Source: a virus
Direction: 5' to 3' (one strand)
DNA: 64,000 bases
Virus record (IMG/VR): IMGVR_UViG_3300006155_000004
Position 1 is the first letter of the stretch. The number at the start of each line of letters is the position of its first letter. Positions 4,661 through 61,047 of the stretch are shown here, piece after piece. Under the pieces are notes generated by a model. That model was given only the letters and a program-made list of their open reading frames with translations. It was not told the DNA's origin and ran no database searches. Made by a program: the position numbers and the translations under genes.

Positions 4661-5260
4661 ATGAACATAAAAGATTTCAAAGCCGGTCAGACGGTTTATG
4701 TTGAACTGACCGGGAACGCAAGCAGAGGAAAGACACCTGAACAATGTATTGAGGAATGGGAGATTACTTCTGTTGGGAGGAAATACATAAAGGCAGCAAA
4801 GAAAGGATATGACAGGCTTTTTAGAGAAAACACTTTTGAATTTCAAGATTACAATGAAAGATTTGTTGAGAAATCGGTTTACTGCGAAAAAAATTATGTT
4901 CTCTACACAACAAGGCAGGAGATTGAGGAAAAACAAGAGAAAAGCAGGCTGTTTCAGGAGATTGAGCAGCGGTTCAGATACGGTTCGCAAAGGGATATTT
5001 CCTTAGAGAAGTTGAGGGCAATACATGGGGTTTTGGATGAAAGCAGAATGTCAGACATTGATTTCCTTAAAACGGTTCGTGAGATTTGCGAGAATAGATG
5101 TCATTCAGGCTTTGAAGATACAGAAGAAGAATATCCACATTGCCCGTTTCCGTGGAGGTTTTGCGATTTGGATAAGAATTTTTATGAAATGACAAATGAT
5201 GAATTAGAGGAAATCTGTAAAACAGCAAGAGACTTTAAAGAGAATTTTCAAAGGAAGTGA
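4661..5260 (+). CDS. hypothetical protein
   Basis: ORF track. Confidence 0.7.
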   Translation: MNIKDFKAGQTVYVELTGNASRGKTPEQCIEEWEITSVGRKYIKAAKKGYDRLFRENTFEFQDYNERFVEKSVYCEKNYVLYTTRQEIEEKQEKSRLFQEIEQRFRYGSQRDISLEKLRAIHGVLDESRMSDIDFLKTVREICENRCHSGFEDTEEEYPHCPFPWRFCDLDKNFYEMTNDELEEICKTARDFKENFQRK

Positions 5261-5261
5261 T

Positions 5262-5849
5262 TTGATTGATTTTGAAGTGTTTAGGGAGTGCGGTTTATTG
5301 AAAGTAGATATTTTTAATACAGAAAACAAGTATCAAATAATTTATGCTGACCCACCTTGGAGAAATCCTAAAAGCTGTACAAAGGCAAGAAATAACGAAA
5401 AACATTATCCGTCAATGGCAACTGATGAAATATGCAGACTCCCAATAACAAATATATCGGAAAGAAACGCAATTCTTTTTCTGTGGATTTGCTTTCCTTG
5501 TTTAGAGTATAGTTTGAAAGTGATAAATTCATGGGGGTTTGAGTATTACGGTTTGGGTTTTGATTGGTGCAAAATAAAATCTGACGGAACGCCCAAAATC
5601 GGATGCGGATATTATACAAGGCAGAACAACGAATTATGCCTTGTTGGAGTAAAATACGGAATGGAAAACAGAATAAAACCACTTGTTAAAAATATCGGTT
5701 GTAGTATTTTGGAACAGCCTAGGGAACACAGCAGAAAGCCAGATATTGTCAGAGAAAATATTATAAAAATTTGCGGAGATATTCCAAGAATCGAGTTATT
5801 TGCAAGACAAGAATATGACGGTTGGGATTGCTGGGGAAATGAAATTTAA
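5262..5849 (+). CDS. MT-A70-family N6-adenine DNA methyltransferase
   Basis: YADPPW catalytic motif near the N-terminus; size and order typical of the MT-A70 family; TTG start per ORF track. Confidence 0.8.
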   Translation: MIDFEVFRECGLLKVDIFNTENKYQIIYADPPWRNPKSCTKARNNEKHYPSMATDEICRLPITNISERNAILFLWICFPCLEYSLKVINSWGFEYYGLGFDWCKIKSDGTPKIGCGYYTRQNNELCLVGVKYGMENRIKPLVKNIGCSILEQPREHSRKPDIVRENIIKICGDIPRIELFARQEYDGWDCWGNEI

Positions 5850-5870
5850 AAAGAAAGCGAGGTGATTTAG

Positions 5871-6620
5871 ATGTTCGTTAGATGTATTGGCACTGGTAGT
5901 AGCGGAAATTGTTACGCTTTATATGACAATTACGGCAAGATACTTCTTTTAGATTTGGGTTTAGCAAGGAAACAAATACTTAGAGGAATTGACTTTAATG
6001 TAACTGATGTTGTCGGGGCGGTAGTGAGCCACGGGCATGGAGACCACGCAAAGTCGGTTAAGGACTTTGAGAATATGGGAATACCTGTTTTCAAGCCCTA
6101 TATTGGAAAATGGAAAATGGCAGAAATGGATAGACATTATCCAACATACTACGGAAAGAGAACGAGAGATTTTAAGGTTCTTGAATTTGACATGACAGAT
6201 AAGAACAACCGATTCATGCACACCAACAATGATGGCTCAGAATGTCCATGTTACGGTTTTTTGATTGAACATGAGGACATGGGGAAGATGTTATACATAA
6301 CCGACGCAGAGCTTGTCAAATGGAGATTTAGTGGTATCAATCACATCTTAATCTCTTGCAACTATCAAAAAAAATATATTTCTGACAGTGCAAAAAGAAG
6401 CCATGTTCTTATGGGGCATATGGAGTTGGAGACGGTAAAGGACTTTATAAAGGCAAATAAATCCAATGCCCTTAGAACTGTCATGTTGTGCCATTTAAGC
6501 CAAGATAGCGCCGACCCGGAGGAATGTCTGTCAGAGATTCAAAATGTCGTTGGAGAGGACGTTAAATGCGTTGTGGCGACGGTGGGAGAAACGGTTGAAT
6601 TAAGTTTGTATCCATTTTAA
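5871..6620 (+). CDS. metallo-beta-lactamase-fold hydrolase
   Basis: SHGHGDH (HxHxDH) zinc-binding motif; RBS GAGGTGA. Confidence 0.7.
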   Translation: MFVRCIGTGSSGNCYALYDNYGKILLLDLGLARKQILRGIDFNVTDVVGAVVSHGHGDHAKSVKDFENMGIPVFKPYIGKWKMAEMDRHYPTYYGKRTRDFKVLEFDMTDKNNRFMHTNNDGSECPCYGFLIEHEDMGKMLYITDAELVKWRFSGINHILISCNYQKKYISDSAKRSHVLMGHMELETVKDFIKANKSNALRTVMLCHLSQDSADPEECLSEIQNVVGEDVKCVVATVGETVELSLYPF

Positions 6621-6630
6621 GGAGGTTTCC

Positions 6631-6945
6631 ATGAAGATAGAATTTGACGAAAACGATTTGAAATATATAGAGAAAATCAATGAGGATTTGAAATCTGGTG
6701 AGCAAATCCCTTTGTTTGTTGGAACGGTTGGTAAAAGATATTTTATTGAGTTTACTTGTGAGGACATAGCTAAAGCTAATGCGTTTTCCATGATGTTTAT
6801 GAACCCTAACGCTGAAAAGATACGGGAATTAAAGGAAAGATTAGGGATAACGGTAAACTGTATAAGCTATTGTTCGGGTGATTCAAAACGAGAGGAACTT
6901 AAAAGATATTTGGAGAAAATGTTGCGTGAATTGGAACAGATGTAG
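6631..6945 (+). CDS. hypothetical protein
   Basis: ORF track; AAGGAGG RBS. Confidence 0.7.
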   Translation: MKIEFDENDLKYIEKINEDLKSGEQIPLFVGTVGKRYFIEFTCEDIAKANAFSMMFMNPNAEKIRELKERLGITVNCISYCSGDSKREELKRYLEKMLRELEQM

Positions 6946-6974
6946 CGGAAAGCGGTTGAATTGAAAGAAAGCAG

Positions 6975-7310
6975 GTGTCCGTTTTGATAGATTTATACCC
7001 TACAAAATGCAATCTATGTGGCGGTACGGTTGTTTACATAAGCAATTCAAAAATCTATGGCAGGGAATACGGAAGCGGAAAATGTTATTACTGTGCAAAC
7101 TGCGGTTCTTATGTCGGAACGCACAAGCCAAGACCGAAAGAAGCATTGGGGATTTTAGGAAATGGCAAAATGCGTGAAATGAAAATGAAGTGCCATGAAT
7201 TATTCGACCGACAATGGAAGAACGAGAAAACTTCCAAGAAAAGGCATATCGCAAGGAAGAAAGCATATGAGGATTTGGCGGTTAAGCTGAATATTCCGGT
7301 TGAAGAATGA
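6975..7310 (+). CDS. zinc-finger protein (DUF3268-like)
   Basis: CNLCGG...CYYCANCGSYVGTH pattern; GTG start per ORF track (TTG 6984 is an alternative). Confidence 0.55.
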   Translation: MSVLIDLYPTKCNLCGGTVVYISNSKIYGREYGSGKCYYCANCGSYVGTHKPRPKEALGILGNGKMREMKMKCHELFDRQWKNEKTSKKRHIARKKAYEDLAVKLNIPVEE

Positions 7311-26883: not shown

Positions 26884-26980
26884 GAATATAACAAGCTTTG
26901 TTTGAGTTTTGAGCCTTTTTATGGTAAAATATAAACTATATCAAGGCTCTTTTCCTAAACAAAAGAAAGGAGATTTGTCA

Positions 26981-28171
26981 ATGGGAAAAGATTTGAAAGG
27001 AAAGGAGTTGGGTGTTGGGTTAATCCAACGCAAAGACGGGCTGTATCAGGCGAGATATTCTAACAGATGGGGAAAGAGAAAAACTATCTATGGGAAGAAT
27101 CTGCGAGAACTGAGAAAAGAGCTTGCGGAGGCTATTGCGGGAAACGAGAACTTTGCAAGCACAAAATACGAAATAACGCTTGATAAGTGGTTTGACAGAT
27201 GGATGGAGGTTTATAAAGAGAAAAGTATAAGACCAAACACCAAGAGAGAATATACGCACATATACAAGAAAAATATTTCTCCGTACATAGGAGAAAGAAA
27301 CATCAATTCTCTTGTCAAATCCGATATTCAAAGAATTATTGATAGGGCAAGTGACGACAGTTATGCTTATGAGCGGCAGAATAAAATCAAAGTGATTCTT
27401 CGAGATATGCTGCAGAGGGCAGTTGAAGATAATCTTGTTGTCAACAATCCCGTGAGCGGTATAAAACTTAGGGCAGATAAGGAAATCAAGGCAAAATCAT
27501 TGACAGTTGAAGAACAATCATTATTCTTTGATTATTGCCGCAACACATTTTATGATAACCTTTTCAACGTGGCGGTTAATACGGGATTACGGCCGGGCGA
27601 GCTATTTGCCTTGCAATTTTCGGACATAGATCTTGATAATGGGCTTATAGACGTAAACAAAACGCTTGTTTACCAAAAATATCTTGATGATGAATGTAAA
27701 ACGTTTCATGTCGAACCGCCAAAAACTAAGAAAAGCTACAGAAAAGTGCCAATCAACAGCGTTTGCAGAAAGTTTTTAGAAAGTCAATTAGAATTGAAAT
27801 CAGTCGTATCGCAGAAAAGACCAAAACAACAGAATGACTACGTATTTGTGACAAAGTTTAATACGCCTCTTAACTCTGTTATTTATTCGGATGCGATAAA
27901 AGCCGTAATTCGCCAGATAAACCTAGCAAGGCCGTTTGATAATCAGTTTGAGGTATTCAGCGGACATACATTCCGGCACACATTTGCTACTAGGTGCTTC
28001 GAGAGTGGGGTGGACGCAAAAGTGGTGCAAAGCTATCTTGGTCATGCAAGCCTTAAAATGACAATGGATTTATATACACATGTCACAGAGGAAAAATCAA
28101 TGAAAGACATAGAAAAAATTGTTCCGGGGATCGAAAACAAGGTCGTGAACATAAGGAGAAAAATGGCTTAA
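26981..28171 (+). CDS. int: tyrosine site-specific integrase
   Basis: In-frame ATG 26981 with AAAGGAG RBS; GLRPGEL (Arg), HTFRHTFAT (H-x-x-R), LGHASLKMTMDLYTH (His/Tyr). Confidence 0.9.
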   Translation: MGKDLKGKELGVGLIQRKDGLYQARYSNRWGKRKTIYGKNLRELRKELAEAIAGNENFASTKYEITLDKWFDRWMEVYKEKSIRPNTKREYTHIYKKNISPYIGERNINSLVKSDIQRIIDRASDDSYAYERQNKIKVILRDMLQRAVEDNLVVNNPVSGIKLRADKEIKAKSLTVEEQSLFFDYCRNTFYDNLFNVAVNTGLRPGELFALQFSDIDLDNGLIDVNKTLVYQKYLDDECKTFHVEPPKTKKSYRKVPINSVCRKFLESQLELKSVVSQKRPKQQNDYVFVTKFNTPLNSVIYSDAIKAVIRQINLARPFDNQFEVFSGHTFRHTFATRCFESGVDAKVVQSYLGHASLKMTMDLYTHVTEEKSMKDIEKIVPGIENKVVNIRRKMA

Positions 28172-29031: not shown

Positions 29032-29250
29032 GTGGTATCTACGTTGAAAGTGCCCGATTTTACATTGCCAGAATTGGAATACATAAAGAAAAACGGAAAT
29101 CTAACGCCGAGAGAGGCGGAGGTACTTGAATTGAGAAATCAAGAATACCCTCCGACCATAGAGAGCATTGCTGAAACGTGGGGGTGCAGTCCGTCTACAG
29201 TCAGTAAAACCATAGGAAGTCTAAAGAAAAAGATAATAAGGCTTTTGTAA
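29032..29250 (+). CDS. small sigma-70 region-4/LuxR-like HTH protein
   Basis: LTPREAEVLELR...SIAETWGCSPSTVSKTIGSLKKKI; paralog of 60817..61047. Confidence 0.55.
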   Translation: MVSTLKVPDFTLPELEYIKKNGNLTPREAEVLELRNQEYPPTIESIAETWGCSPSTVSKTIGSLKKKIIRLL

Positions 29251-29342
29251 TGGTTTAAACAATATTACAATTTCACTACAAGAACATGCTATTGAGTATG
29301 TTCTTTTTTGTTTGTAAAATAAAATTCATAGGAGGTATTTCT

Positions 29343-29549
29343 ATGAATTTAAGTTTTTTATCAAAAGAACAGTCGGAAGAATATAAAAACAAGATGAACT
29401 TGACGGAAGATGAAGATCAGATTTTTGATATGTTAACAAAGAATTATTCTGTTGTCAAGATTTCAGATATTATGCAAATGTCAACTCGGACGGTCGACAG
29501 AAGAATTAAAAATATCAAATCGAAAATGAAAAATCTAAATCTGGTTTAA
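29343..29549 (+). CDS. small sigma-70 region-4-like HTH protein
   Basis: In-frame ATG 29343 with TAGGAGG RBS; LTEDEDQIFDML...ISDIMQMSTRTVDRRIKNIKSKM. Confidence 0.55.
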   Translation: MNLSFLSKEQSEEYKNKMNLTEDEDQIFDMLTKNYSVVKISDIMQMSTRTVDRRIKNIKSKMKNLNLV

Positions 29550-29802: not shown

Positions 29803-29825
29803 GAAAATAAATGGAGGTGTTGAAA

Positions 29826-30800
29826 ATGGCAGATTTAAATTGCTTGTGGGGAATATACTACGATATGATAAAAAGATGTTATGATAAAAATTATTTTTTA
29901 TACAAAAGTTATGGAGAAATCGGAGTAACCGTTTGCCCTGAATGGTTAAATAATAGAAGTAGTTTTAACGAATGGGCAAATTTGAAAAATTACAAAAAGG
30001 GAATGCGCTTAAAATTGCGTGAAAAAGAAGTTGGATATTTTCCGAGTAATTGCTATTTTAGTAACAAAAGAGAAAGAAAGTTAAAAGAAAATAAACAAAA
30101 AGAAGGCAGTAAAACATACAGAAGTGATAAATTCAAAAGTATTTTAGGCGTTGAAAAATATATAGATAGTCCTATATACATATCTTATTATGCAATGATT
30201 GATAGATGTTGTAATCCGAAGAACAAGTCCTATAAATGGTATGGCGCAAAAGGCATAAAAGTATGTGATGAATGGACAGAAGATATAATCGGATTTGAAA
30301 GATTTTCTGTTTGGTCTTTAGGGAATGGGTGGAGAAAAGGTCTTACAATAGACAGAATAAATGCGGATAAAGATTATTGCCCAGAAAATTGTAGGTGGAT
30401 AACTATACAAGAACAGCAGATAAACAAATCAAATTCTTTAAATTTTATGTATAGTGGTCAGATTAGAAATTTATCGGAAATAGCGAAAGAAAATAATTTG
30501 TGTTATTCAAATTTGTATAGGAAAATAATGTATGATAATTATTCTGTTGAAGATGCGATAAATTATTTAAAAAGAAGAAGAAAAGGAAAGAAAAATAGCA
30601 TGTACCATTCAAAACAAGTTGCGCAAATAGATAGTAATGGAGAAATAGCAAAAGTTTTTCCAAGCGCAAAATCAGCGGCTGATTCCTACGGAAAATCTTC
30701 TGGAAGCTTAACAAAGGCTTGTAGAAACGGGACAACATGGTTGGGGAAAAGATGGAAATATATAACCGAAGATGAATATGACGAATTTTTAAAAAAGTAG
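29826..30800 (+). CDS. HNH_3-like / NUMOD-like DNA-binding protein (His replaced by Arg in the HNH core)
   Basis: Two Y-x-x-M-x-x-RC...YG-x-x-GI-x-VC-x-EW modules, LTIDRINADKDYCPENCRWIT, C-terminal V-x-Q-I-D-x-x-G...F-x-S-x-x-x-A module. Confidence 0.55.
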   Translation: MADLNCLWGIYYDMIKRCYDKNYFLYKSYGEIGVTVCPEWLNNRSSFNEWANLKNYKKGMRLKLREKEVGYFPSNCYFSNKRERKLKENKQKEGSKTYRSDKFKSILGVEKYIDSPIYISYYAMIDRCCNPKNKSYKWYGAKGIKVCDEWTEDIIGFERFSVWSLGNGWRKGLTIDRINADKDYCPENCRWITIQEQQINKSNSLNFMYSGQIRNLSEIAKENNLCYSNLYRKIMYDNYSVEDAINYLKRRRKGKKNSMYHSKQVAQIDSNGEIAKVFPSAKSAADSYGKSSGSLTKACRNGTTWLGKRWKYITEDEYDEFLKK

Positions 30801-30873
30801 CTTTTAAAAGAGGCGTAAACTTGTCGTTTTCGTCTCTTTTTTATATGGTAAAACAATTACAGGAGATGATTTT

Positions 30874-31104
30874 ATGTTCAATGATGACCTTTTGTGCAAA
30901 ATCTTCGCGCATGAGGAAATGCAAAAAATTCCTATAGGGACACAAGCAACAGCTGTCCATGTGTTTGAAGAAATCTTAGAAGATATATTGGAGGAAAATC
31001 CATATGAGCAATTATCCGGCTTACTCGTACCAGCAACCCCAGATGATGGGGTATCAGCAGAATTTCAATCAGACTATGCAGATGCAGAACCCCTATATGG
31101 ATAG
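30874..31104 (+). CDS. possible acidic small protein
   Basis: ORF track; AGGAG RBS; the last 100 nt overlap the better-supported 31004 gene. Confidence 0.35.
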   Translation: MFNDDLLCKIFAHEEMQKIPIGTQATAVHVFEEILEDILEENPYEQLSGLLVPATPDDGVSAEFQSDYADAEPLYG

Positions 31105-31528
31105 GTCTGTGCAGATGCAGCAATATCAGCAGGGGCAGCAGGTGCTACCAACACAAATGCAGGGAGCATATCAGCAGCCCGGACTTATCGGGAAAATGGT
31201 GAATGACGTGTCTATGGTTTCCCCAAACGATGTACCTATGGATGGAAACATTGCCATTTTCCCAAAGGGAGACATGTCTGAAATCTACTGTAAGCAGTGG
31301 AAGCAGGACGGGACCATTCAGACAGTCGTTTATAAGCCTGTTTTAGAACAGAATCAGACAGAGGCTACAAATACACCGCAGATGGATTTTAGCGCCTTAA
31401 ATGAGGACGTTAGGGCGCTTAGGGAAGATATAAAAGGTGTTCGGGATATGATTGAAAAATCTATGGCGGTTCCGGCAACTAAAACATCCCAGAGAGGGAA
31501 GAAAGCGGAGGTAAGTGCTGATGAATAG
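31004..31528 (+). CDS. Q/M-rich low-complexity protein
   Basis: ORF track; GGAGGA RBS; N-terminal 60 aa dominated by Q, M, Y, P. Confidence 0.6.
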   Translation: MSNYPAYSYQQPQMMGYQQNFNQTMQMQNPYMDRSVQMQQYQQGQQVLPTQMQGAYQQPGLIGKMVNDVSMVSPNDVPMDGNIAIFPKGDMSEIYCKQWKQDGTIQTVVYKPVLEQNQTEATNTPQMDFSALNEDVRALREDIKGVRDMIEKSMAVPATKTSQRGKKAEVSADE

Positions 31529-31799
31529 ACAAATGCAGATACAGCAGATGATGGGAAATCCACAGTTTCAACAGCAGTACCAACAGAGATTAAGAGTGAT
31601 GAACCCAGCACAGATTTTAGACCAGATAGCAAACAACCCCAAAATGATGGAAAATCCAATGGTGAAAAACATCATGGAAATGCGGAATAACCACGACACC
31701 GAGGGGCTGACCGGAATGGCAGAAAATATGTTCCGCGAAAACGGGAGAGATTATGGAGAGTTTGAAAGCGGATTGAAACAGCAGTTAGGGTTTAAATGA
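31521..31799 (+). CDS. Q/M-rich small protein
   Basis: ATG 31521, 9 nt after GGAGG (ORF-track GTG 31515 is an alternative). Confidence 0.55.
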   Translation: MNRQMQIQQMMGNPQFQQQYQQRLRVMNPAQILDQIANNPKMMENPMVKNIMEMRNNHDTEGLTGMAENMFRENGRDYGEFESGLKQQLGFK

Positions 31800-31956
31800 A
31801 CGGACCCAAGCAGTGTGTTTTAATGTATAAAATTCAGAAAATCCTTGAATTTATAAGGTTTTTCTGGCGGACCACACAAAGTACATATTAGGGTTTGGCG
31901 CGCAGATAAAAACCGGTTCCCTATTTGTAAATACACTTCAAATAGGAGGCACTAAT

Positions 31957-32889
31957 ATGTTTAATTCAAACAATTCAACACCATTTACGATGCCGGTACA
32001 ACCTGCCGGATATGGAAACGGCGGTGGCTTTGGTGGCTGGGGAGATGACTGGATTGCCCTGATTGTACTGGCTATGGTATTCGGCTATGGAAACTTCGGT
32101 TTCGGCGGCATGGGCGGCATGGGTGGCATGGGAATGTTCTGGCCGTTTATGATGGGCGGTTTTGGAGGATTCGGCGGTAACGGCTGCGGATGCGGCGGAA
32201 CGAATGCCATCGATGCATCCATCCAGCGCGGATTTGATACCCAGTCCATAATCGGAAAGTTAGACGGTATCAACAACGGCTTATGTGACGGCTTCTATGC
32301 AGTCAACACGTCCATTCTGAACTCACAAAGCGGCATCCAGAACAGTTTGTGTCAGGGCTTTAACGGCGTGAACACAAATATCATGCAGGGCAACTTTGGT
32401 TTGCAACAGGCTATCAACGGTGCTTCTGTGGCTAATATGCAGGGACAGAACGCTTTGCAGAGCCAGTTAGCAAGCTGCTGCTGCGAAACGCAGAGAGCAA
32501 TTGACGGTGTAAACTATAACATGGCGACCAATACCTGTGCTATTACCAATCAGATGAACAACAACACCAGAGACATTATCGAGAGCAACAATGCTGGTAC
32601 AAGAGCAATCCTTGACTACCTGTGCCAGAAAGAAAATGCAGACCTTCGGGCAGAAAACCAGAGCCTTAGACTGGAGAAGAGCCAGACGGCACAGAACGCA
32701 TTTATTGCAGCAAACCAGAGCGCACAGACAGCCGAACTCATTAGGCGATTGGGGGCTGATTGCCCGGTTAATGCCGTGGTGGTTCAGCCGAACACGCCTG
32801 TTACTTTCCCGACAAACTGCTGCGGTGGTGTAAACTACGCAGGATATGGCAATAACGGCGGGTGCGGCTGCAATAGTGGCTGCTGCTAA
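31957..32889 (+). CDS. Gly-rich membrane-associated protein with Cys/Asn/Gln-rich repeat body and GC-CxC tail
   Basis: ORF track; TAGGAGG RBS; G/F/M N-terminus resembling YjcZ-like peptides; repeated LC(D/Q)GF-x-x-VNT-x-I; ends GGCGCNSGCC. Confidence 0.65.
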   Translation: MFNSNNSTPFTMPVQPAGYGNGGGFGGWGDDWIALIVLAMVFGYGNFGFGGMGGMGGMGMFWPFMMGGFGGFGGNGCGCGGTNAIDASIQRGFDTQSIIGKLDGINNGLCDGFYAVNTSILNSQSGIQNSLCQGFNGVNTNIMQGNFGLQQAINGASVANMQGQNALQSQLASCCCETQRAIDGVNYNMATNTCAITNQMNNNTRDIIESNNAGTRAILDYLCQKENADLRAENQSLRLEKSQTAQNAFIAANQSAQTAELIRRLGADCPVNAVVVQPNTPVTFPTNCCGGVNYAGYGNNGGCGCNSGCC

Positions 32890-33024
32890 TGGATGCGAAA
32901 GAAACTGATACTCTCGCCATTCTTGACGAGATTATCAGAAATCAGGAAGAAATACTAAGAAAACTCGCCAACATAAGTTAGGCTGATTATTCCCCACAAC
33001 AAAGGTGGGTTGATTATAAGCTAA

Positions 33025-33054
33025 GGGGCGAGATGTAACAGTCTTGTCCCTTTT
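33025..33054 (+). terminator. intrinsic terminator
   Basis: GGGGCGAGA / TCTTGTCCC stem (with G-U pairs) followed by TTTT. Confidence 0.55.
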
Positions 33055-33077
33055 GCGTTGTACATTGACAACTGAAT

Positions 33078-33097
33078 ATGGCTAACAGTTTGTATGC
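33078..33097. repeat. 20-bp perfect inverted repeat, left copy
   Basis: ATGGCTAACAGTTTGTATGC is the exact reverse complement of 33754-33773. Confidence 0.9.
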
Positions 33098-33104
33098 TTT
33101 ATGC

Positions 33105-33132
33105 TTGCAATTTTCTCTGTTTGTGATATAAT
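33105..33132 (+). promoter_or_regulatory. sigma-70-type promoter
   Basis: TTGCAA, 16-nt spacer, TATAAT upstream of ATG 33167. Confidence 0.5.
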
Positions 33133-33166
33133 AAATGTGACACATAAATTCATAGGAGTGTTGCGA

Positions 33167-33736
33167 ATGGCAGGTAGACCAAAGAAAACAGACGACGAAA
33201 AACGGACAAACTTTATAAATGTCCGCTTGAATAATTCGGAGAAAGAAAAACTTGAATTTCTATCGGAAAAGCAAGGAATTTCAAAACATCAAGTTATCAG
33301 AAACGGGATTGAATTGCAGTATAAGGAGGAAAAAATGAATAGGAAAATTAAGTTTAGGGCGTGGTGTGAAACATATACTGGAACAAGCGGCATAAAGAAG
33401 TTTATGGAAAACTGTTTTAAGCAAATCAAATTAGAATCTACAAGCATCAATCCGCAAGGTAGTTTTATAGGAAAACAAGGAACTTGGAGCGGATTGCACG
33501 AAAGCGTATTTATGCAATACATAGGGATTGAAGATAAAAACAAAAAGGAAATATATGAGAGCGATGTAGTAAAAATAGATGGAAAACGAGAACTTTTTAC
33601 CGTTGTTTGGGTGTGTGATACCGCAAGGTTTGGATTGCAAAGCAAGGGAGAACTTCTTTATTTTGAGTTGGGAATTGGAAGCAGGATTGAAGTTGTAGGA
33701 AATAAATACGAAAATCCAGAACTTTTGCAAAACTAA
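33167..33736 (+). CDS. RHH-like N-terminal domain fused in frame to a YopX domain
   Basis: ATG 33167 (AGGAG RBS): MAGRPKKTDDEKRTNFINVRL...; internal ATG 33335 has its own AAGGAGG RBS and starts the YopX part (...VVGNKYENPELL); no stop between them. Confidence 0.6.
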   Translation: MAGRPKKTDDEKRTNFINVRLNNSEKEKLEFLSEKQGISKHQVIRNGIELQYKEEKMNRKIKFRAWCETYTGTSGIKKFMENCFKQIKLESTSINPQGSFIGKQGTWSGLHESVFMQYIGIEDKNKKEIYESDVVKIDGKRELFTVVWVCDTARFGLQSKGELLYFELGIGSRIEVVGNKYENPELLQN

Positions 33737-33753
33737 ATCATTTATCAAATAGA

Positions 33754-33773
33754 GCATACAAACTGTTAGCCAT
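33754..33773. repeat. 20-bp perfect inverted repeat, right copy
   Basis: GCATACAAACTGTTAGCCAT. Confidence 0.9.
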
Positions 33774-33796
33774 AGGAGGCTAGCAGTTTTTTATTT
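33760..33796 (+). terminator. intrinsic terminator
   Basis: AAACTGTTAGCC / GGCTAGCAGTTT stem (one mismatch) followed by TTTTTATTT; the 5' arm is part of the right inverted-repeat copy. Confidence 0.6.
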
Positions 33797-33818
33797 GGAG
33801 AAATGGAGGTTAAAATAT

Positions 33819-34232
33819 ATGGCATGTAAAAATGTATGCAGGCTGTGCGACAGACTGATTTTGAGCCAGTCAATTACGTTTACTGGCGGCAATCTGGTTA
33901 TCAATCTGCCCGCCGGAAGTTACAACAATAACTGCAAATACTGCATTGTCTTAGCACAGGCAATCCCGACAACTACGACAATCGGCGCACCTGTGGTATT
34001 CACAATCGGAACAGGAACACAGCTTTATCCTCTTGCGAACAGATGTTGCAGACCTGTTACGGCGTGTGGCGTGCGTACCCGCACAAAATATTCTGTATGC
34101 GTGGAGACGACGGAGACAGGGGCGACATTCAAAATGCTTGGAAATCCGGCGTGTCAGCCGAACAACAACCTGCGGGCAGTTAATGGTACTGCACCCGTGT
34201 CAGAACCGGCAACACCAGAGGCAGGAGCATAG
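33819..34232 (+). CDS. Cys-rich protein of unknown function
   Basis: In-frame ATG 33819 with TGGAGG RBS; 12 Cys, T/G/N-rich. Confidence 0.6.
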   Translation: MACKNVCRLCDRLILSQSITFTGGNLVINLPAGSYNNNCKYCIVLAQAIPTTTTIGAPVVFTIGTGTQLYPLANRCCRPVTACGVRTRTKYSVCVETTETGATFKMLGNPACQPNNNLRAVNGTAPVSEPATPEAGA

Positions 34233-34248
34233 AGAGGAGGTAAAAAGT

Positions 34249-35097
34249 ATGCATATCAAGAGAATCCATGAAATGGAAGAAAAGTTGACAGAAATCGCCC
34301 TTTGCGAGATTAACAAGGGCATTGAATGTGTCAATACCGCCGAAATGGGCGCAGTTATCGACATGATAAAAGATTTGGCTTGTGCCGAAAAAGAGGCAAG
34401 AGAAGCCAAAGAAATGGAAAAAGAAGAGGAAGGTGAAAAGAAAGAAAACGAATACTTTCTGAAAAAGCTGAAAGAAGAATACGGAGAAGAAGAGGGAGAA
34501 AAGAGGTTTTACAGCGGACAGCCTAGAAGCCGCACGTCTGGTCGGTTTATGAGGCGCGGAGACGGGCGTAGGAGAGGATATGAGGAGCCACCTTATTATC
34601 ACACCATGCCAGATTACAGAATGGATTTGGCAGATTACAAAGGAAAGACAGCCGAGGAACTTAGGGACTTAGATAGAGCTTCAGGGCGATTATATTTTTC
34701 TGAACCTATGGGCGTCAATATGAGCGGTGGAAATTCTTCTGTCAGTAACACAAGCTCGGAAAATAGCGGCGGAAATACGAGGTCATATACAGAGGGTTTT
34801 GAGGATGGACAGACCAGGGGATATTCCGAAGGATATGAACGAGGAAGAAATGACGGAAGAAACTCGCAAAGCAGAGATAGGCGTGAGGGGCGTTCAGGGC
34901 AGTCCAGACGCGGATATATGGAAACTAAAGAAGCACGCAAAGAAAATACACCAGAAAACAAGCAGTACCGAATGAAAGAATTGGAAACATACGCAAAGGA
35001 ATTGACCGAAGACGTAGTTGACATGATTGCAGACGCTACGCCGGAGGAGCGTTCTCTTATGAAGCAGAAAATGCAGGTGCTTTTGCAAAAACTGTAA
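34249..35097 (+). CDS. highly charged E/K/R/G/S-rich low-complexity protein
   Basis: In-frame ATG 34249 with GGAGG RBS inside ORF 34033..35097. Confidence 0.6.
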   Translation: MHIKRIHEMEEKLTEIALCEINKGIECVNTAEMGAVIDMIKDLACAEKEAREAKEMEKEEEGEKKENEYFLKKLKEEYGEEEGEKRFYSGQPRSRTSGRFMRRGDGRRRGYEEPPYYHTMPDYRMDLADYKGKTAEELRDLDRASGRLYFSEPMGVNMSGGNSSVSNTSSENSGGNTRSYTEGFEDGQTRGYSEGYERGRNDGRNSQSRDRREGRSGQSRRGYMETKEARKENTPENKQYRMKELETYAKELTEDVVDMIADATPEERSLMKQKMQVLLQKL

Positions 35098-35148: not shown

Positions 35149-35165
35149 AAAGCGAGGTGGTGAAA

Positions 35166-35351
35166 ATGTCGCCTAGAACTGGCAGACCTATTATCGGGAG
35201 CGAGCCGAAAAATCAACAAATTGCATTGAGGGTAACAGCTACAACAAAGAGGAAATTTCAAGAGTGTTCTGAAATTACCGGAAAAACTCAAACAAATTTG
35301 CTTGAAGAAATGGTTGACGACTTGCACGATAGGTTGACGGAAAAAGAATAG
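35166..35351 (+). CDS. ribbon-helix-helix protein
   Basis: MSPRTGRP...QQIALRVTATTKRKFQE...; same architecture as 37882.. and 33167.. Confidence 0.6.
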   Translation: MSPRTGRPIIGSEPKNQQIALRVTATTKRKFQECSEITGKTQTNLLEEMVDDLHDRLTEKE

Positions 35352-35686
35352 AGCGTTACCGCCCTGAACAAGTGATAAACGCTCTACACCGAGGTTTCCC
35401 TCTGATAAATACAATCATATCACAGCGGAGACCTCTTTTCAAGATATTTTTACAAAAGATGAACCCACGCTCATGGGAGAAAGAGGTACATAATAAGAAG
35501 AAAAATAATGATAATGCTTTACGCGCTCTCTTCAATCATTGATGACATTGCATATTTCGTTGTCGGAAATTGCGAGGATTTTCAATGCGAGATTAAAACT
35601 CATTGGAGAGAACATTCTATCGGTTAGTATGTTTTCTGCTGATTTGGGGAGTGGCTACCGCTCCCTTTTGTGATATGGAGGTATTT

Positions 35687-36667
35687 ATGGAAAAGCCAAC
35701 GCTTAATTGGAGATGTAAAGATATATCTGGGTATAGGAAAGGAACGATAACTGTAAAAAATCCAACCGATAGCAGAAGTAAGAACGGATCTATAATATGG
35801 GAATGCGAGTGTGAGTGCGGAAACAAGGTTTATTTAACAAAACAACAAATAGAGAAAAATCCTTATTGTGGAAAACGCAATAAAACATATAATTTTATAG
35901 ATTTTAAAGACAAACAAATAGGTGTTCTTCATGTTATCGAATATACAGGAGATTCAAAATGGTTATGCGAATGTGAGTGTGGAAATCGGAAAATTGTTCA
36001 TAGGTCTGTTTTGCGAAAAGGAGCAACATATGCTTGCTCATGCAATCACAAACTTCATAAATCCGATTGCAATACAACGCATGGAAAGAGCAATACAAGG
36101 CTTTATCATGTTTGGTGCGGAATGAAAAACAGATGTTACAATAAAAATTTAGATGAATATCACAGATATGGCGGCAGAGGAATAACAATCTGCCCTGAAT
36201 GGCTGGGGAAGAACGGCTTTCAGAATTTTTGTAAATGGGCATATGCGAATGGGTACGACGAAAATGCAAAGCGTGGAGATTGTACAATAGACAGAATTAA
36301 CAATGATGGAAATTATGAACCGTCAAATTGCCGGTGGGCTACATATATTGAACAAGCCAATAATAGGAGTGACAATCATTTAATAGAGATAAGTGGGGTT
36401 GTTAAAGGAATTAAGGATTGGTGCGATGAATACGGAATAAAAATCGGAACGTATAAAACGAGAGTTCGCAGAGGAACGGACGATGTTTCTGCTATTACTA
36501 CGCCAATAAGAAAATTCAGCAAAGATTTAACCGAAAAAGAGAGAAAAGAAAGAAAACAAAAGAGACTTGAAAGAATTAAAAAATGGCAGGAAGAAAACAA
36601 AGATAAAGTTAAAGAATATCAAAGAAAAAGCGAGGAAAAGAAAAAATCAGAAAAGAAAGCCGATTAG
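35687..36667 (+). CDS. HNH_3-like DNA-binding protein (Arg in place of the HNH His) with CxC zinc-ribbon repeats
   Basis: In-frame ATG 35687 with TGGAGG RBS; WECECECGN / WLCECECGN repeats; LYHVWCGMKNRC...YGGRGITICPEW...CTIDRINNDGNYEPSNCRWAT. Confidence 0.55.
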   Translation: MEKPTLNWRCKDISGYRKGTITVKNPTDSRSKNGSIIWECECECGNKVYLTKQQIEKNPYCGKRNKTYNFIDFKDKQIGVLHVIEYTGDSKWLCECECGNRKIVHRSVLRKGATYACSCNHKLHKSDCNTTHGKSNTRLYHVWCGMKNRCYNKNLDEYHRYGGRGITICPEWLGKNGFQNFCKWAYANGYDENAKRGDCTIDRINNDGNYEPSNCRWATYIEQANNRSDNHLIEISGVVKGIKDWCDEYGIKIGTYKTRVRRGTDDVSAITTPIRKFSKDLTEKERKERKQKRLERIKKWQEENKDKVKEYQRKSEEKKKSEKKAD

Positions 36668-36689
36668 GGGCAGAAATGCCCCTTTTCTT
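36667..36689 (+). terminator. intrinsic terminator
   Basis: GGGGCA / TGCCCC stem followed by TTTT, overlapping the stop of 35687..36667. Confidence 0.6.
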
Positions 36690-36705
36690 GAAAGAGGGTG
36701 TATCT

Positions 36706-37029
36706 ATGAATTTTATTGTGAATAATCATATATGGAAGCTGCAATTCGCAAAAGGCGGCAGCGAAAATCTGCGTAGATCGGACGGCAGTTATACTTTTGG
36801 TGCGACGGACAATTCTGTCAAAACAGTTTTTCTCATGCAGAATATGTCGGATTACATGACGGATAAGGTATTAGTTCACGAATTGTCGCACGTCCATGCG
36901 CTAGAGTATGACTATTCAATTCCGCTATGGGTAGAAGAAATCGTTTGTGATTTCCTAAGTCTGTATGGCAGGAGCGTAGTCTATTTGGCGGATAGTATAA
37001 TGCCAAAGATTTTAAGGAGGATAGCATGA
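36706..37029 (+). CDS. HExxH metallopeptidase-like protein
   Basis: In-frame ATG 36706 (downstream of the terminator); KVLVHELSHV motif; paralog of 59819..60235. Confidence 0.5.
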   Translation: MNFIVNNHIWKLQFAKGGSENLRRSDGSYTFGATDNSVKTVFLMQNMSDYMTDKVLVHELSHVHALEYDYSIPLWVEEIVCDFLSLYGRSVVYLADSIMPKILRRIA

Positions 37030-60816: not shown

Positions 60817-61047
60817 ATGAGCAGAACCAAAAACATAATCCCCGAATTTACAAAGGACGAGCAAGACTACATAAAGGAACACGCAAACTTTATGGAAGAA
60901 GAATTGCTTTTCTTTGAACTACGAAATAAACAGCACACTTATGAATACTGCGCAATGGAAATGGGAATGTGCGTGTCGGCAGTCAAGAAAGTATCAAAGA
61001 AAACTATTTCTAAGATTATGAGAGTGATACGGCATATGGATATTTGA
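60817..61047 (+). CDS. small sigma-70 region-4-like HTH protein
   Basis: Paralog of 29032..29250 (IIPEFTKDEQDYIKEHANF...ELRNK vs KVPDFTLPELEYIKKNGNL...ELRNQ). Confidence 0.55.
   Translation: MSRTKNIIPEFTKDEQDYIKEHANFMEEELLFFELRNKQHTYEYCAMEMGMCVSAVKKVSKKTISKIMRVIRHMDI

Follow-up and report, generated by a model that had tools for sequence, protein, structure and literature searches.

Accessory virion proteins of tailed phages, such as the head and collar fibres and decoration proteins phi29 gp8.5, T4 fibritin and PhicrAss001 gp21 and gp29, are non-essential, are encoded near the capsid genes and are exchanged between unrelated phages, and such fibres combine a coiled-coil shaft with a small distal β domain. 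In gut crassviruses the virions are stabilised by disulfides and small head fibres are encoded near the capsid gene, and the head fibres of gut phages are thought to bind host or gut surfaces (PMC10172136). Ejected cargo or pilot proteins (T7 gp14-16, P22 gp7, gp16 and gp20, PhicrAss001 gp45 and the cargo of MuF proteins) are α-helical and carry a transmembrane (TM) segment. Morons, such as the exclusion moron gp15 of HK97, are autonomous units with their own promoter-like element and a membrane-anchored product, and the proteins of the exosporium and spore coat (BclA, the Cys-rich ExsY/CotY, the Q-rich GerQ and the GerE regulon) are cytoplasmic products without signal peptides. Here we describe a cassette of compositionally extreme proteins, which shares features with each of these systems, at positions 30874-35097 of a 64,000-nucleotide virus sequence (IMG/VR record IMGVR_UViG_3300006155_000004; this whole stretch is called the window below). 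The window is of a Lachnospiraceae-type phage and carries nearly all of its genes on the plus strand.

The cassette and the elements upstream of it are as follows; loci in other genomes are given by our numbers (L).
29343-29549, plus strand: H, 68 aa, a helix-turn-helix (HTH) protein of GerE/LuxR type; the mechanical open reading frame (ORF) runs from 29286, and the conserved ATG is at 29343
30810-30854, plus strand: promoter-like element, with an imperfect inverted repeat at 30810-30836, a T-run at 30837-42 and an extended -10 (TG-n-TAAAAC) at 30846-30854
30874-31104, plus strand: A, 76 aa, acidic; its 3′ end overlaps the start of B
31004-31528, plus strand: B, 174 aa, with 15% Q and 9% M
31515-31799, plus strand: C, 94 aa (92 aa from the ATG at 31521), with 15% Q, 14% M and 12% N
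31957-32889, plus strand: D, 310 aa, with 16% G, 13% N and 16 Cys
32889-32981, plus strand: E, a helical peptide of 30 aa whose start overlaps the stop codon of D (TAATG)
32993-33060, plus strand: terminator-like hairpins after E, at the boundary of the B-E and F-G units
33819-34232, plus strand: F (of the F1 type), 137 aa, Thr/Cys-rich, with 10 Cys and an N-terminal C-x3-C-x2-C
34249-35097, plus strand: G, 282 aa, with 16% E, 10% R, 9% G and 8% K

One operon in many gut phages

The cassette was found to consist of seven genes, A to G, interrupted by an RHH-YopX insert. The original prediction, made from the sequence of 31004-35097, had listed five consecutive, individually terminated genes; instead, A precedes B, E overlaps the stop codon of D, and the RHH-YopX gene splits E from F. 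The genes overlap or abut (B with C and D with E overlapping, F and G spaced by 16 nt), and the terminator scan gave plus-strand terminator-like sites only after E (32993-33009) and after the insert (33760-33789), with no such hairpin predicted after G.

In order to follow the genes into other genomes, 80 genome loci were retrieved via D alone and iterated profiles were then built for each gene; the 80 loci, the window and the loci fetched earlier form a set of 89. The co-occurrence of the genes proved to be real, in that they form a truly co-inherited cassette: essentially all of the 80 loci show it, and the order H-(A)-B-(C)-D-(E)-F-G was kept throughout. Among the 89 loci, B was present in 80, G in 69, C in 47 and H in 46, while A was detected by the iterated profiles in 15; loci without a detected C have a space of corresponding length between B and D. 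Contigs carrying close relatives of D, including the chromosome of Lachnospiraceae bacterium A2, have these neighbours too, arranged alike, and B, C, D, F and G can be made out as a set in Butyrivibrio phage Ceridwen as well as in a group of Clostridium perfringens siphophages. A is conserved at 61-67% identity across loci L003-L008, and E, which is annotated as a gene in public assemblies, at 93-97%. At the protein level, H and the cassette share 72-81% identity with their counterparts in certain prophages, although the integrases agree in just 23-26%, and the unit therefore moves between phages. These results identify the region as a copy of an accessory operon, ancient and self-contained, that belongs to phages of gut Bacillota.

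Scans of all cassette proteins against Pfam, NCBIfam, PHROGs and PADLOC returned no functional family, and the component families are already known only as PHROGs of unknown function. As had been stated, none of the five proteins first noticed could be assigned to a family in Pfam or NCBIfam. PADLOC gave zero matches of A-G to its defence families, no enzymes were seen in the operon apart from small peptidase-like genes, and neither a Collagen Pfam match nor a run of GXX repeats was found in A-G. By inspection of the sequences, an N-terminal signal peptide is absent from B, C, F and G. Megablast of the region against known phages gave no match, and a limited literature search found no account of the operon as a unit. 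The families are large and confined to gut viruses, D having at least 7,989 relatives, B more than 7,600 and F1 3,839, and they carry no Pfam family, name or structure. The operon, present in thousands of gut phages, is among the more widespread conserved operons of unknown function in phages of gut Clostridia, and its function, once worked out, would annotate thousands of genes.

Protein D, position F and their small partners

D matches phrog_16490 at 6.5e-59, a family annotated in PHROGs as 'unknown function', and its relatives in a large protein database, which form 1,295 clusters at 50% identity, are 'hypothetical' or nameless and without Pfam domains. From its 5′ to its 3′ end the gene encodes an acidic N-terminus, a hydrophobic segment flanked by Trp and Gly (residues 31-45 approximately), a Gly-rich stretch, long helices at residues 95-138 and 146-265, the invariant CCC and a C-terminus rich in Pro and Cys, whose form in the family is CP.PAY.V..P...C.CG..GCGC. 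Family members have a median of 12 Cys and about 170 residues of predicted helix, and their hydrophobic periodicity peaks at 3.65 residues (11/3, that is, hendecads) and not at 3.5. The AlphaFold2 (AF2) model of D contains long helices only, with a mean predicted local distance difference test (pLDDT) score of 75 to 95 per 10-residue block over residues 171-270 or so. In most members the hydrophobic segment is strongly hydrophobic and TM-like, and its N-terminal flank is acidic (3.1 D/E vs 0.9 K/R).

The length of D, its CCC motif, its two LC(D/Q)GF..VNT.I units and its GGCGCNSGCC tail were all present as first described, while the suggestion of a 'YjcZ-like' N-terminus was not borne out: the NCBIfam scan of D (E ≤ 1) returned one chance match to MreC and none to YjcZ (TIGR01732). 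A Pfam scan of 51 members of the D alignment gave scattered chance matches only, and a Foldseek search of the D model against the Protein Data Bank (PDB) was empty. No significant match came from searching the PDB with profiles of F1, D and F2. The best one for D, to HA2, the class I fusion protein of influenza virus, covered the first helix and the hydrophobic Gly-rich stretch at an E-value of 0.021, and it was rejected as compositional.

Homologues of D were also found outside the phages of Bacillota. They occur in many crAss-like phages, where depositors have labelled them 'spike protein/glycoprotein' or 'outer capsid protein/viral fiber'. That of the crAss-like phage cr116_1 (L090, 3632-4528), which the D profile matches at 5.4e-26, has the small terminase gene on one side and the capsid gene on the other, and small proteins of similar sizes follow it. 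An isolated phage of Bacteroides uniformis carries a homologue; the coordinates of the one in Bacteroides phage C3_41T2LP (L093) are 4989-5906. Two viruses of Methanomassiliicoccales carry one too; in vir215 (NC_092586.1; L092) the gene, at 4878-5759, follows closely on genes for a reverse transcriptase and a tail protein, and the depositor tagged the archaeal-virus homologue with phrog_16490 as well. The archaeal and Bacteroidota homologues share the Gly/Trp-flanked hydrophobic segment, a QCCC motif and the Cys-rich C-terminus, and the proteins of Crassvirales (with Bacteroidota hosts) and of Methanomassiliicoccales viruses are true homologues of D.

Two exchangeable proteins were found at position F. 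The F1 type, which the window carries, was present in 44 loci, and the F2 type (of about 140 aa) in 39; they take the same position, never occur together and show no homology to each other in hhalign. The F1 protein of the window is 137 aa long as originally stated, with 10 Cys instead of the 12 that had been counted, and seven Cys are invariant in an alignment of its close relatives. None of the 3,839 relatives of F1 has a Pfam domain, and their database names are 'hypothetical' or absent. The window's F had no Pfam match at E ≤ 0.1, and its AF2 model, all-β and poor (pLDDT 48.7), was not used to infer a fold. Of 38 F2 members, 10 matched BclA_C (PF18573), a C1q/TNF-like C-terminal domain, the best with 25 bits (1.6e-5) where the cut-off is 38; one of these matches spans the full length of the domain.

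The remaining proteins agree in length and composition with what had been read from the sequence, B (174 aa) and C (94 or 92 aa) being Q/M-rich and G (282 aa) E/K/R/G-rich. B is built of a disordered N-terminus rich in Q, M, P and Y, a small conserved domain (..V....AK...V...G......D.....IY.K.....G.P....F...E) and a C-terminal amphipathic helix; it matches phrog_21718 at 2.3e-5, and none of its relatives in the database is named or has a Pfam domain. G has helical N- and C-terminal ends around an E/K-rich stretch and a low-complexity middle rich in R, G, S and Y with a GYxxGxxxG motif. Against Pfam and NCBIfam, G gave only FliH/Yae1 glycine-repeat matches, all below threshold, and a Pfam scan of 55 members of its alignment gave scattered chance matches only.

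A possible virion structure or membrane complex

We favour, at a probability of about 0.4, the reading that the operon makes a virion-associated accessory structure in which D forms a coiled-coil stalk and F an exchangeable knob. Beyond gene content, gene order, composition and predicted secondary structure, we infer the following steps. The products would be non-enzymatic structural proteins, without signal peptides, that assemble in the cytoplasm. D would form an oligomeric hendecad coiled-coil stalk, and the cysteines clustered at both of its ends could cross-link or bind metal. F, whether the Cys-rich F1 or the BclA-C/C1q-like F2, would be a distal knob with a specificity-like role, and B, C and G, rich in disordered segments, would serve as adaptors or chaperones. 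The product would then be a head or collar fibre or a decoration. Less likely, the proteins may be cargo that is packaged along with the minor head protein of MuF type and then ejected, with D entering the membrane by its hydrophobic segment.

The virion-associated reading is favoured because a tailed virion and a gut habitat, and not the host envelope, are the only traits common to all carriers, and because a position in the head module recurs, the coiled coil predicted for D is long and has Cys clusters at its ends, and F is exchangeable. Of the 80 genome loci, at least 17 have the operon between the genes for portal and MuF-like minor capsid protein on one side and those for scaffold and major capsid protein on the other, and so do three further phage contigs of 43-45 kb (L096-L098). 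The place of the cr116_1 homologue next to the capsid gene, the fibre and spike labels given by depositors, the BclA_C matches of F2, the lack of signal peptides and the disulfides and small head fibres of crassvirus virions also speak for this reading. Known head fibres and decoration proteins are likewise encoded near capsid genes, and their coiled-coil shaft and distal β domain resemble the D and F proposed here; on the other hand, no sequence or fold match to these fibres was found, D has a TM-like hydrophobic segment and 12-16 Cys, and the operon has its own regulator and often stands outside the structural modules. With ejected cargo the operon shares the α-helical D with its TM segment, the neighbourhood of a MuF-like gene in many loci and the small peptidase-like genes alongside. 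A compact β-sandwich F and Cys clusters, however, would be unexpected in proteins that unfold through the tail, and no operon protein has homology to any known ejection protein. If the products of the operon were borne by the virion, they would amount to a new kind of phage appendage, one that bears on how phages persist or adhere in the gut.

Several points weigh against this reading. In the window the operon lies between the integrase and the antirepressor, 23 kb upstream of the terminase and not in the head module, and elsewhere it has been found behind the lysis genes or with recombination genes around it. Structural genes seldom have a regulator and promoter of their own, as morons typically do, and a TM-like segment in most D members is odd for an external fibre. 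The F2 matches to BclA_C stay below the Pfam threshold, the PDB profile searches gave nothing significant and the F1 model is of low confidence. When the neighbours of D in the crAss-like phages were compared with B, C, F and G by hhalign, no homology was obtained. The literature search found no virion proteomics or cryo-electron microscopy (cryo-EM) for any carrier phage, and searches on phage-encoded exosporium or spore-coat proteins, on the crAss 'spike/viral fiber' label and on the proteomics of C. perfringens phages returned nothing bearing on these proteins.

It is also possible, at a somewhat lower probability, that the operon is of moron type and acts in the infected or lysogenic cell. 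D would then be a single-pass membrane protein (N-out, C-in) tethering a cytoplasmic complex of B, C, F and G, and this complex would serve in superinfection exclusion, in the control of lysis or division, or in anchoring phage replication or assembly. The TM-like segment with its acidic N-terminal flank across the D family and the lack of signal peptides in the partner proteins are consistent with such a role, as is the tolerance of the operon for the insertion of other accessory genes.

The genomic settings bear on this possibility as well. A same-strand integrase lies 3-5 kb upstream in the window, L003, L006 and L007, and the operon is adjacent to the integrase also in L008-L010. In L094/L095, L051, L055, L057 and Dulem virus 33 it directly follows the endolysin and holin genes, often with an opposite-strand integrase next, so that in L051, L055, L057 and Dulem virus 33 it occupies a lysis-to-integrase slot; lysis genes and/or an opposite-strand integrase flank it in L019, L068 and L078 too. 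The prophage-end position, a typical slot of morons and lysogenic-conversion genes, was thus found in the window and in other integrase- or lysis-flanked loci. In the C. perfringens phages the operon is in the early region near KilA or antirepressor genes. Like morons it has been inserted at several positions, the late operons among them.

Further support for a moron-type unit comes from H and the promoter-like element. H passes the Pfam model GerE (PF00196) with 32.0 bits against a gathering score of 23.5, and its homologue in L094 matches Sigma70_r4 with 27.7 bits against 24.1. H is upstream of B in 46 loci and is 76-81% identical in L003-L008 despite the low identity of the adjacent integrases, and on these grounds it is a putative regulator of the operon. 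PADLOC gave generic HTH matches only for the H-type proteins. The element downstream reads gaggcgtaaacttgtcgttttcgtctc TTTTTT ATA TGG TAAAAC in the window and is followed by a ribosome-binding site (RBS) and the ATG of A at 30874. In many loci the interval between H and the first operon gene holds phased short repeats or an imperfect inverted repeat, a T-run and TG-n-NAWAAT. In 27 of 79 loci the motif T5+..TGnnAWAA(T/C) stands upstream of B at a distance of no more than 450 nt, where about 0.02 would be expected per locus (about 15-fold enriched), and elsewhere in the window it has few sites, one of them upstream of the integrase, and is not significant at that scale. The distance between H and A is only 60 nt in L006-L008. 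With its extended -10 and without a -35, the element looks to be of vegetative type and not of sigmaE or sigmaK type. A dimer of H would bind the inverted repeat upstream of the extended -10 promoter and so switch the unit on, and transcription is predicted to start some 7 nt beyond 30854.

Elements with a T-run and TGnTAAAAT were also seen at 26915-26930, before the integrase ATG (26981), and at 29280-29320, before H and with a hairpin; the integrase, H and the cassette may share a promoter type. The profile of H, moreover, picked out three stand-alone HTH paralogs in the window, at 29032-29250, 29343-29549 (H itself) and 60817-61047, the third being between the large terminase and the portal. 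The first, recovered by the iterated profile, is listed here.
29032-29250, plus strand: H-like paralog, 72 aa, a stand-alone HTH protein of LuxR/sigma-70 region-4 type

The integrase-adjacent and lysis-end slots, the promoter-like element and the small regulator are in keeping with the lysogenic-conversion cassette of the original prediction, and the link to spores that it had drawn was not supported. A moron-type role is, on the other hand, hard to square with five to seven co-conserved genes where morons have one, with low-complexity structural products unlike known exclusion systems, with the zero matches to PADLOC defence families and with the copies, at least 20, inside head modules. D is also conserved in viruses of hosts with very different membranes, archaea included. 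Ceridwen, which retains the full operon, has been seen only in the lytic cycle on Butyrivibrio fibrisolvens and is considered virulent by its authors (PMC7372960). Overall, the virion-associated structure stands slightly ahead, the cell-acting membrane complex is nearly as likely, and a condensate or a foreign island is a minor candidate.

A broader proposal, which we find rather doubtful in its full form, is that the operon represents a new self-assembling structural system of the tailed viruses of gut Bacillota, with D also in viruses of Bacteroidota and methanogenic archaea. It would comprise a Cys-cross-linked hendecad fibre or coat, an exchangeable β knob, prion-like and RGG-like partners and a GerE-type switch, and it would adapt virions or infected cells to the gut through adhesion, through protection outside the anaerobic gut or as a membrane-tethered condensate.

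Base composition, lesser alternatives and neighbouring genes

The region had been described as visibly more GC-rich, and this was confirmed: the GC content of 31004-35097 is 0.444, the highest of 600 sliding windows of 4,094 nt (mean 0.386, sd 0.0175), and it rises to 0.467 for the cassette genes when the insert is left out. The GC content at third codon positions (GC3) is raised as well: the median in the window is 0.40 (sd 0.07), and B, C and D reach 0.53-0.58. A recently acquired island from a GC-richer genome, whose odd composition would reflect its origin only, is nevertheless an unlikely explanation. Besides the highest GC of any 4-kb stretch in the window and the raised GC3, it could draw on the HNH endonuclease genes that stand on both sides and on the movement of the unit between phages. 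Given their amino acids and background codon usage, however, the cassette genes would be expected to reach a GC content of 0.40-0.465, where background genes have 0.383, and amino-acid composition thus accounts for about 60-75% of the excess, the remainder being due to GC-richer synonymous codons. The GC content of the operon also tracks the local genome, from about 0.30 to 0.60 where genome GC in these loci runs from 0.25 to 0.60. Because 79 of 83 loci have a higher GC content in the operon than on either side of it (median +4.2 points), the GC-richness of the operon is intrinsic, a property of Gly/Ala/Cys/Pro/Arg/Gln-rich proteins and somewhat GC-richer codons, and not a mark of foreign origin, a point on which it differs from morons. 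For annotators it follows that GC-rich patches of low-complexity protein genes are not to be taken for foreign islands.

The window's one clearly foreign GC-rich element, and its only other GC-rich patch, is at 1071-2552 on the minus strand and looks like an insertion sequence (IS) element inserted in the phage. It encodes a DDE transposase of 493 aa (PF13751, just above the gathering score; GC 0.50) and lies immediately downstream of the short ORF 111-392, whose match to the RecT profile is confined to the C-terminal part of that profile.

Still less probable is a membrane-tethered condensate, or 'viral factory', in which Tyr/Gln-rich, prion-like B and C would co-condense with Arg/Gly-rich G and be anchored by D. 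The Q/M/P/Y-rich N-terminus of B, the R/G/S/Y-rich core of G between E/K-rich helices, the tight co-occurrence of B and G and the TM-like segment of D would all suit it. The argument is one of composition, however, and the low-complexity parts are the least conserved portions of B and G; the swappable F would be left without a role.

The role in the spore or cell surface that had been suggested, in which Cys-, Gly-, Q- and Tyr-rich proteins would be built into a spore coat, an exosporium or a cross-linked surface matrix, is very improbable: the composition does resemble that of spore-coat proteins (GerQ-, CotG- and ExsY-type), the hosts are mostly Clostridia, signal peptides are absent as expected of coat proteins made in the mother cell, F2 matches BclA_C weakly and the regulator is of the GerE family, but the conserved element is an extended -10 and not a sigmaE or sigmaK promoter, the window proteins have no collagen repeats and no CotZ/ExsY, YjcZ or BclA_C match, many loci have the operon within the head module, homologues of D occur in viruses of archaea and in Crassvirales, and the full module is carried by Ceridwen, whose host B. 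fibrisolvens is not known to sporulate.

Three further candidates were rejected. For a lanthipeptide or bacteriocin precursor the modification enzymes are absent and the proteins too long; for a spanin or class III holin there was no family match and the link to lysis genes is inconsistent; and the DUF families relevant to Ena-like spore appendage proteins were absent from the Pfam matches.

Several genes have been inserted into or beside the operon, or accompany it.
29811-30800, plus strand: HNH homing-type endonuclease (GC 0.30; phrog_3377 at 5.5e-61), inserted between H and the operon and not an operon member
33077-33774, plus strand: inserted cassette, not an operon member, with the RHH+YopX gene at 33167-33736 (GC 0.35; Pfam YopX at 3.2e-16)
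35603-36667: second HNH endonuclease
36676-37029, plus strand: HExxH protein of 117 aa, a possible small metallopeptidase, with weak M78/DUF6782 Pfam matches only

The RHH+YopX insert is bounded by 26-nt inverted repeats (33077-33102 and 33749-33774, 96% complementary) and has its own promoter-like site, TTGCAA-16-TATAAT, and its own terminator-like site; by alignment it is absent from the E/F junction of the related prophage L003. This junction is an insertion hotspot, and other loci carry inserts there: a 391-aa gene with an HTH gene in L006, a 274-aa gene in L040, and in L053 a gene whose 371-aa product we take by eye to resemble a DNA methyltransferase.

Homologues of the HExxH protein stand just downstream of G in 20 loci; in the window an RHH gene (35157-35351) and the second HNH gene displace it from G. 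In 50 loci the operon has at its side a gene for a protein of about 125 aa, placed immediately before B or after G (the L001 copy is at 6713-7090); the protein has no Pfam family match, and we presume from its appearance that it resembles a papain-type peptidase with Cys...His. A 108-aa protein follows G in 16 loci.

The main landmarks of the rest of the window are the following.
13882: helicase/primase
19448: DnaD-like gene
21939: methyltransferase
26909: integrase (true ATG at 26981)
38616: antirepressor
57989: large terminase
61503: portal
63080: MuF-like minor head gene

The two HNH genes that flank the cassette are paralogs, with 36% identity over the core, and are AT-rich (GC 0.30-0.36). 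An HNH-like ORF, similar by eye to them, was seen within the operon copy of Ceridwen (L001, 9088-9951), and in Dulem virus 33 an annotated endonuclease gene stands between C and D.

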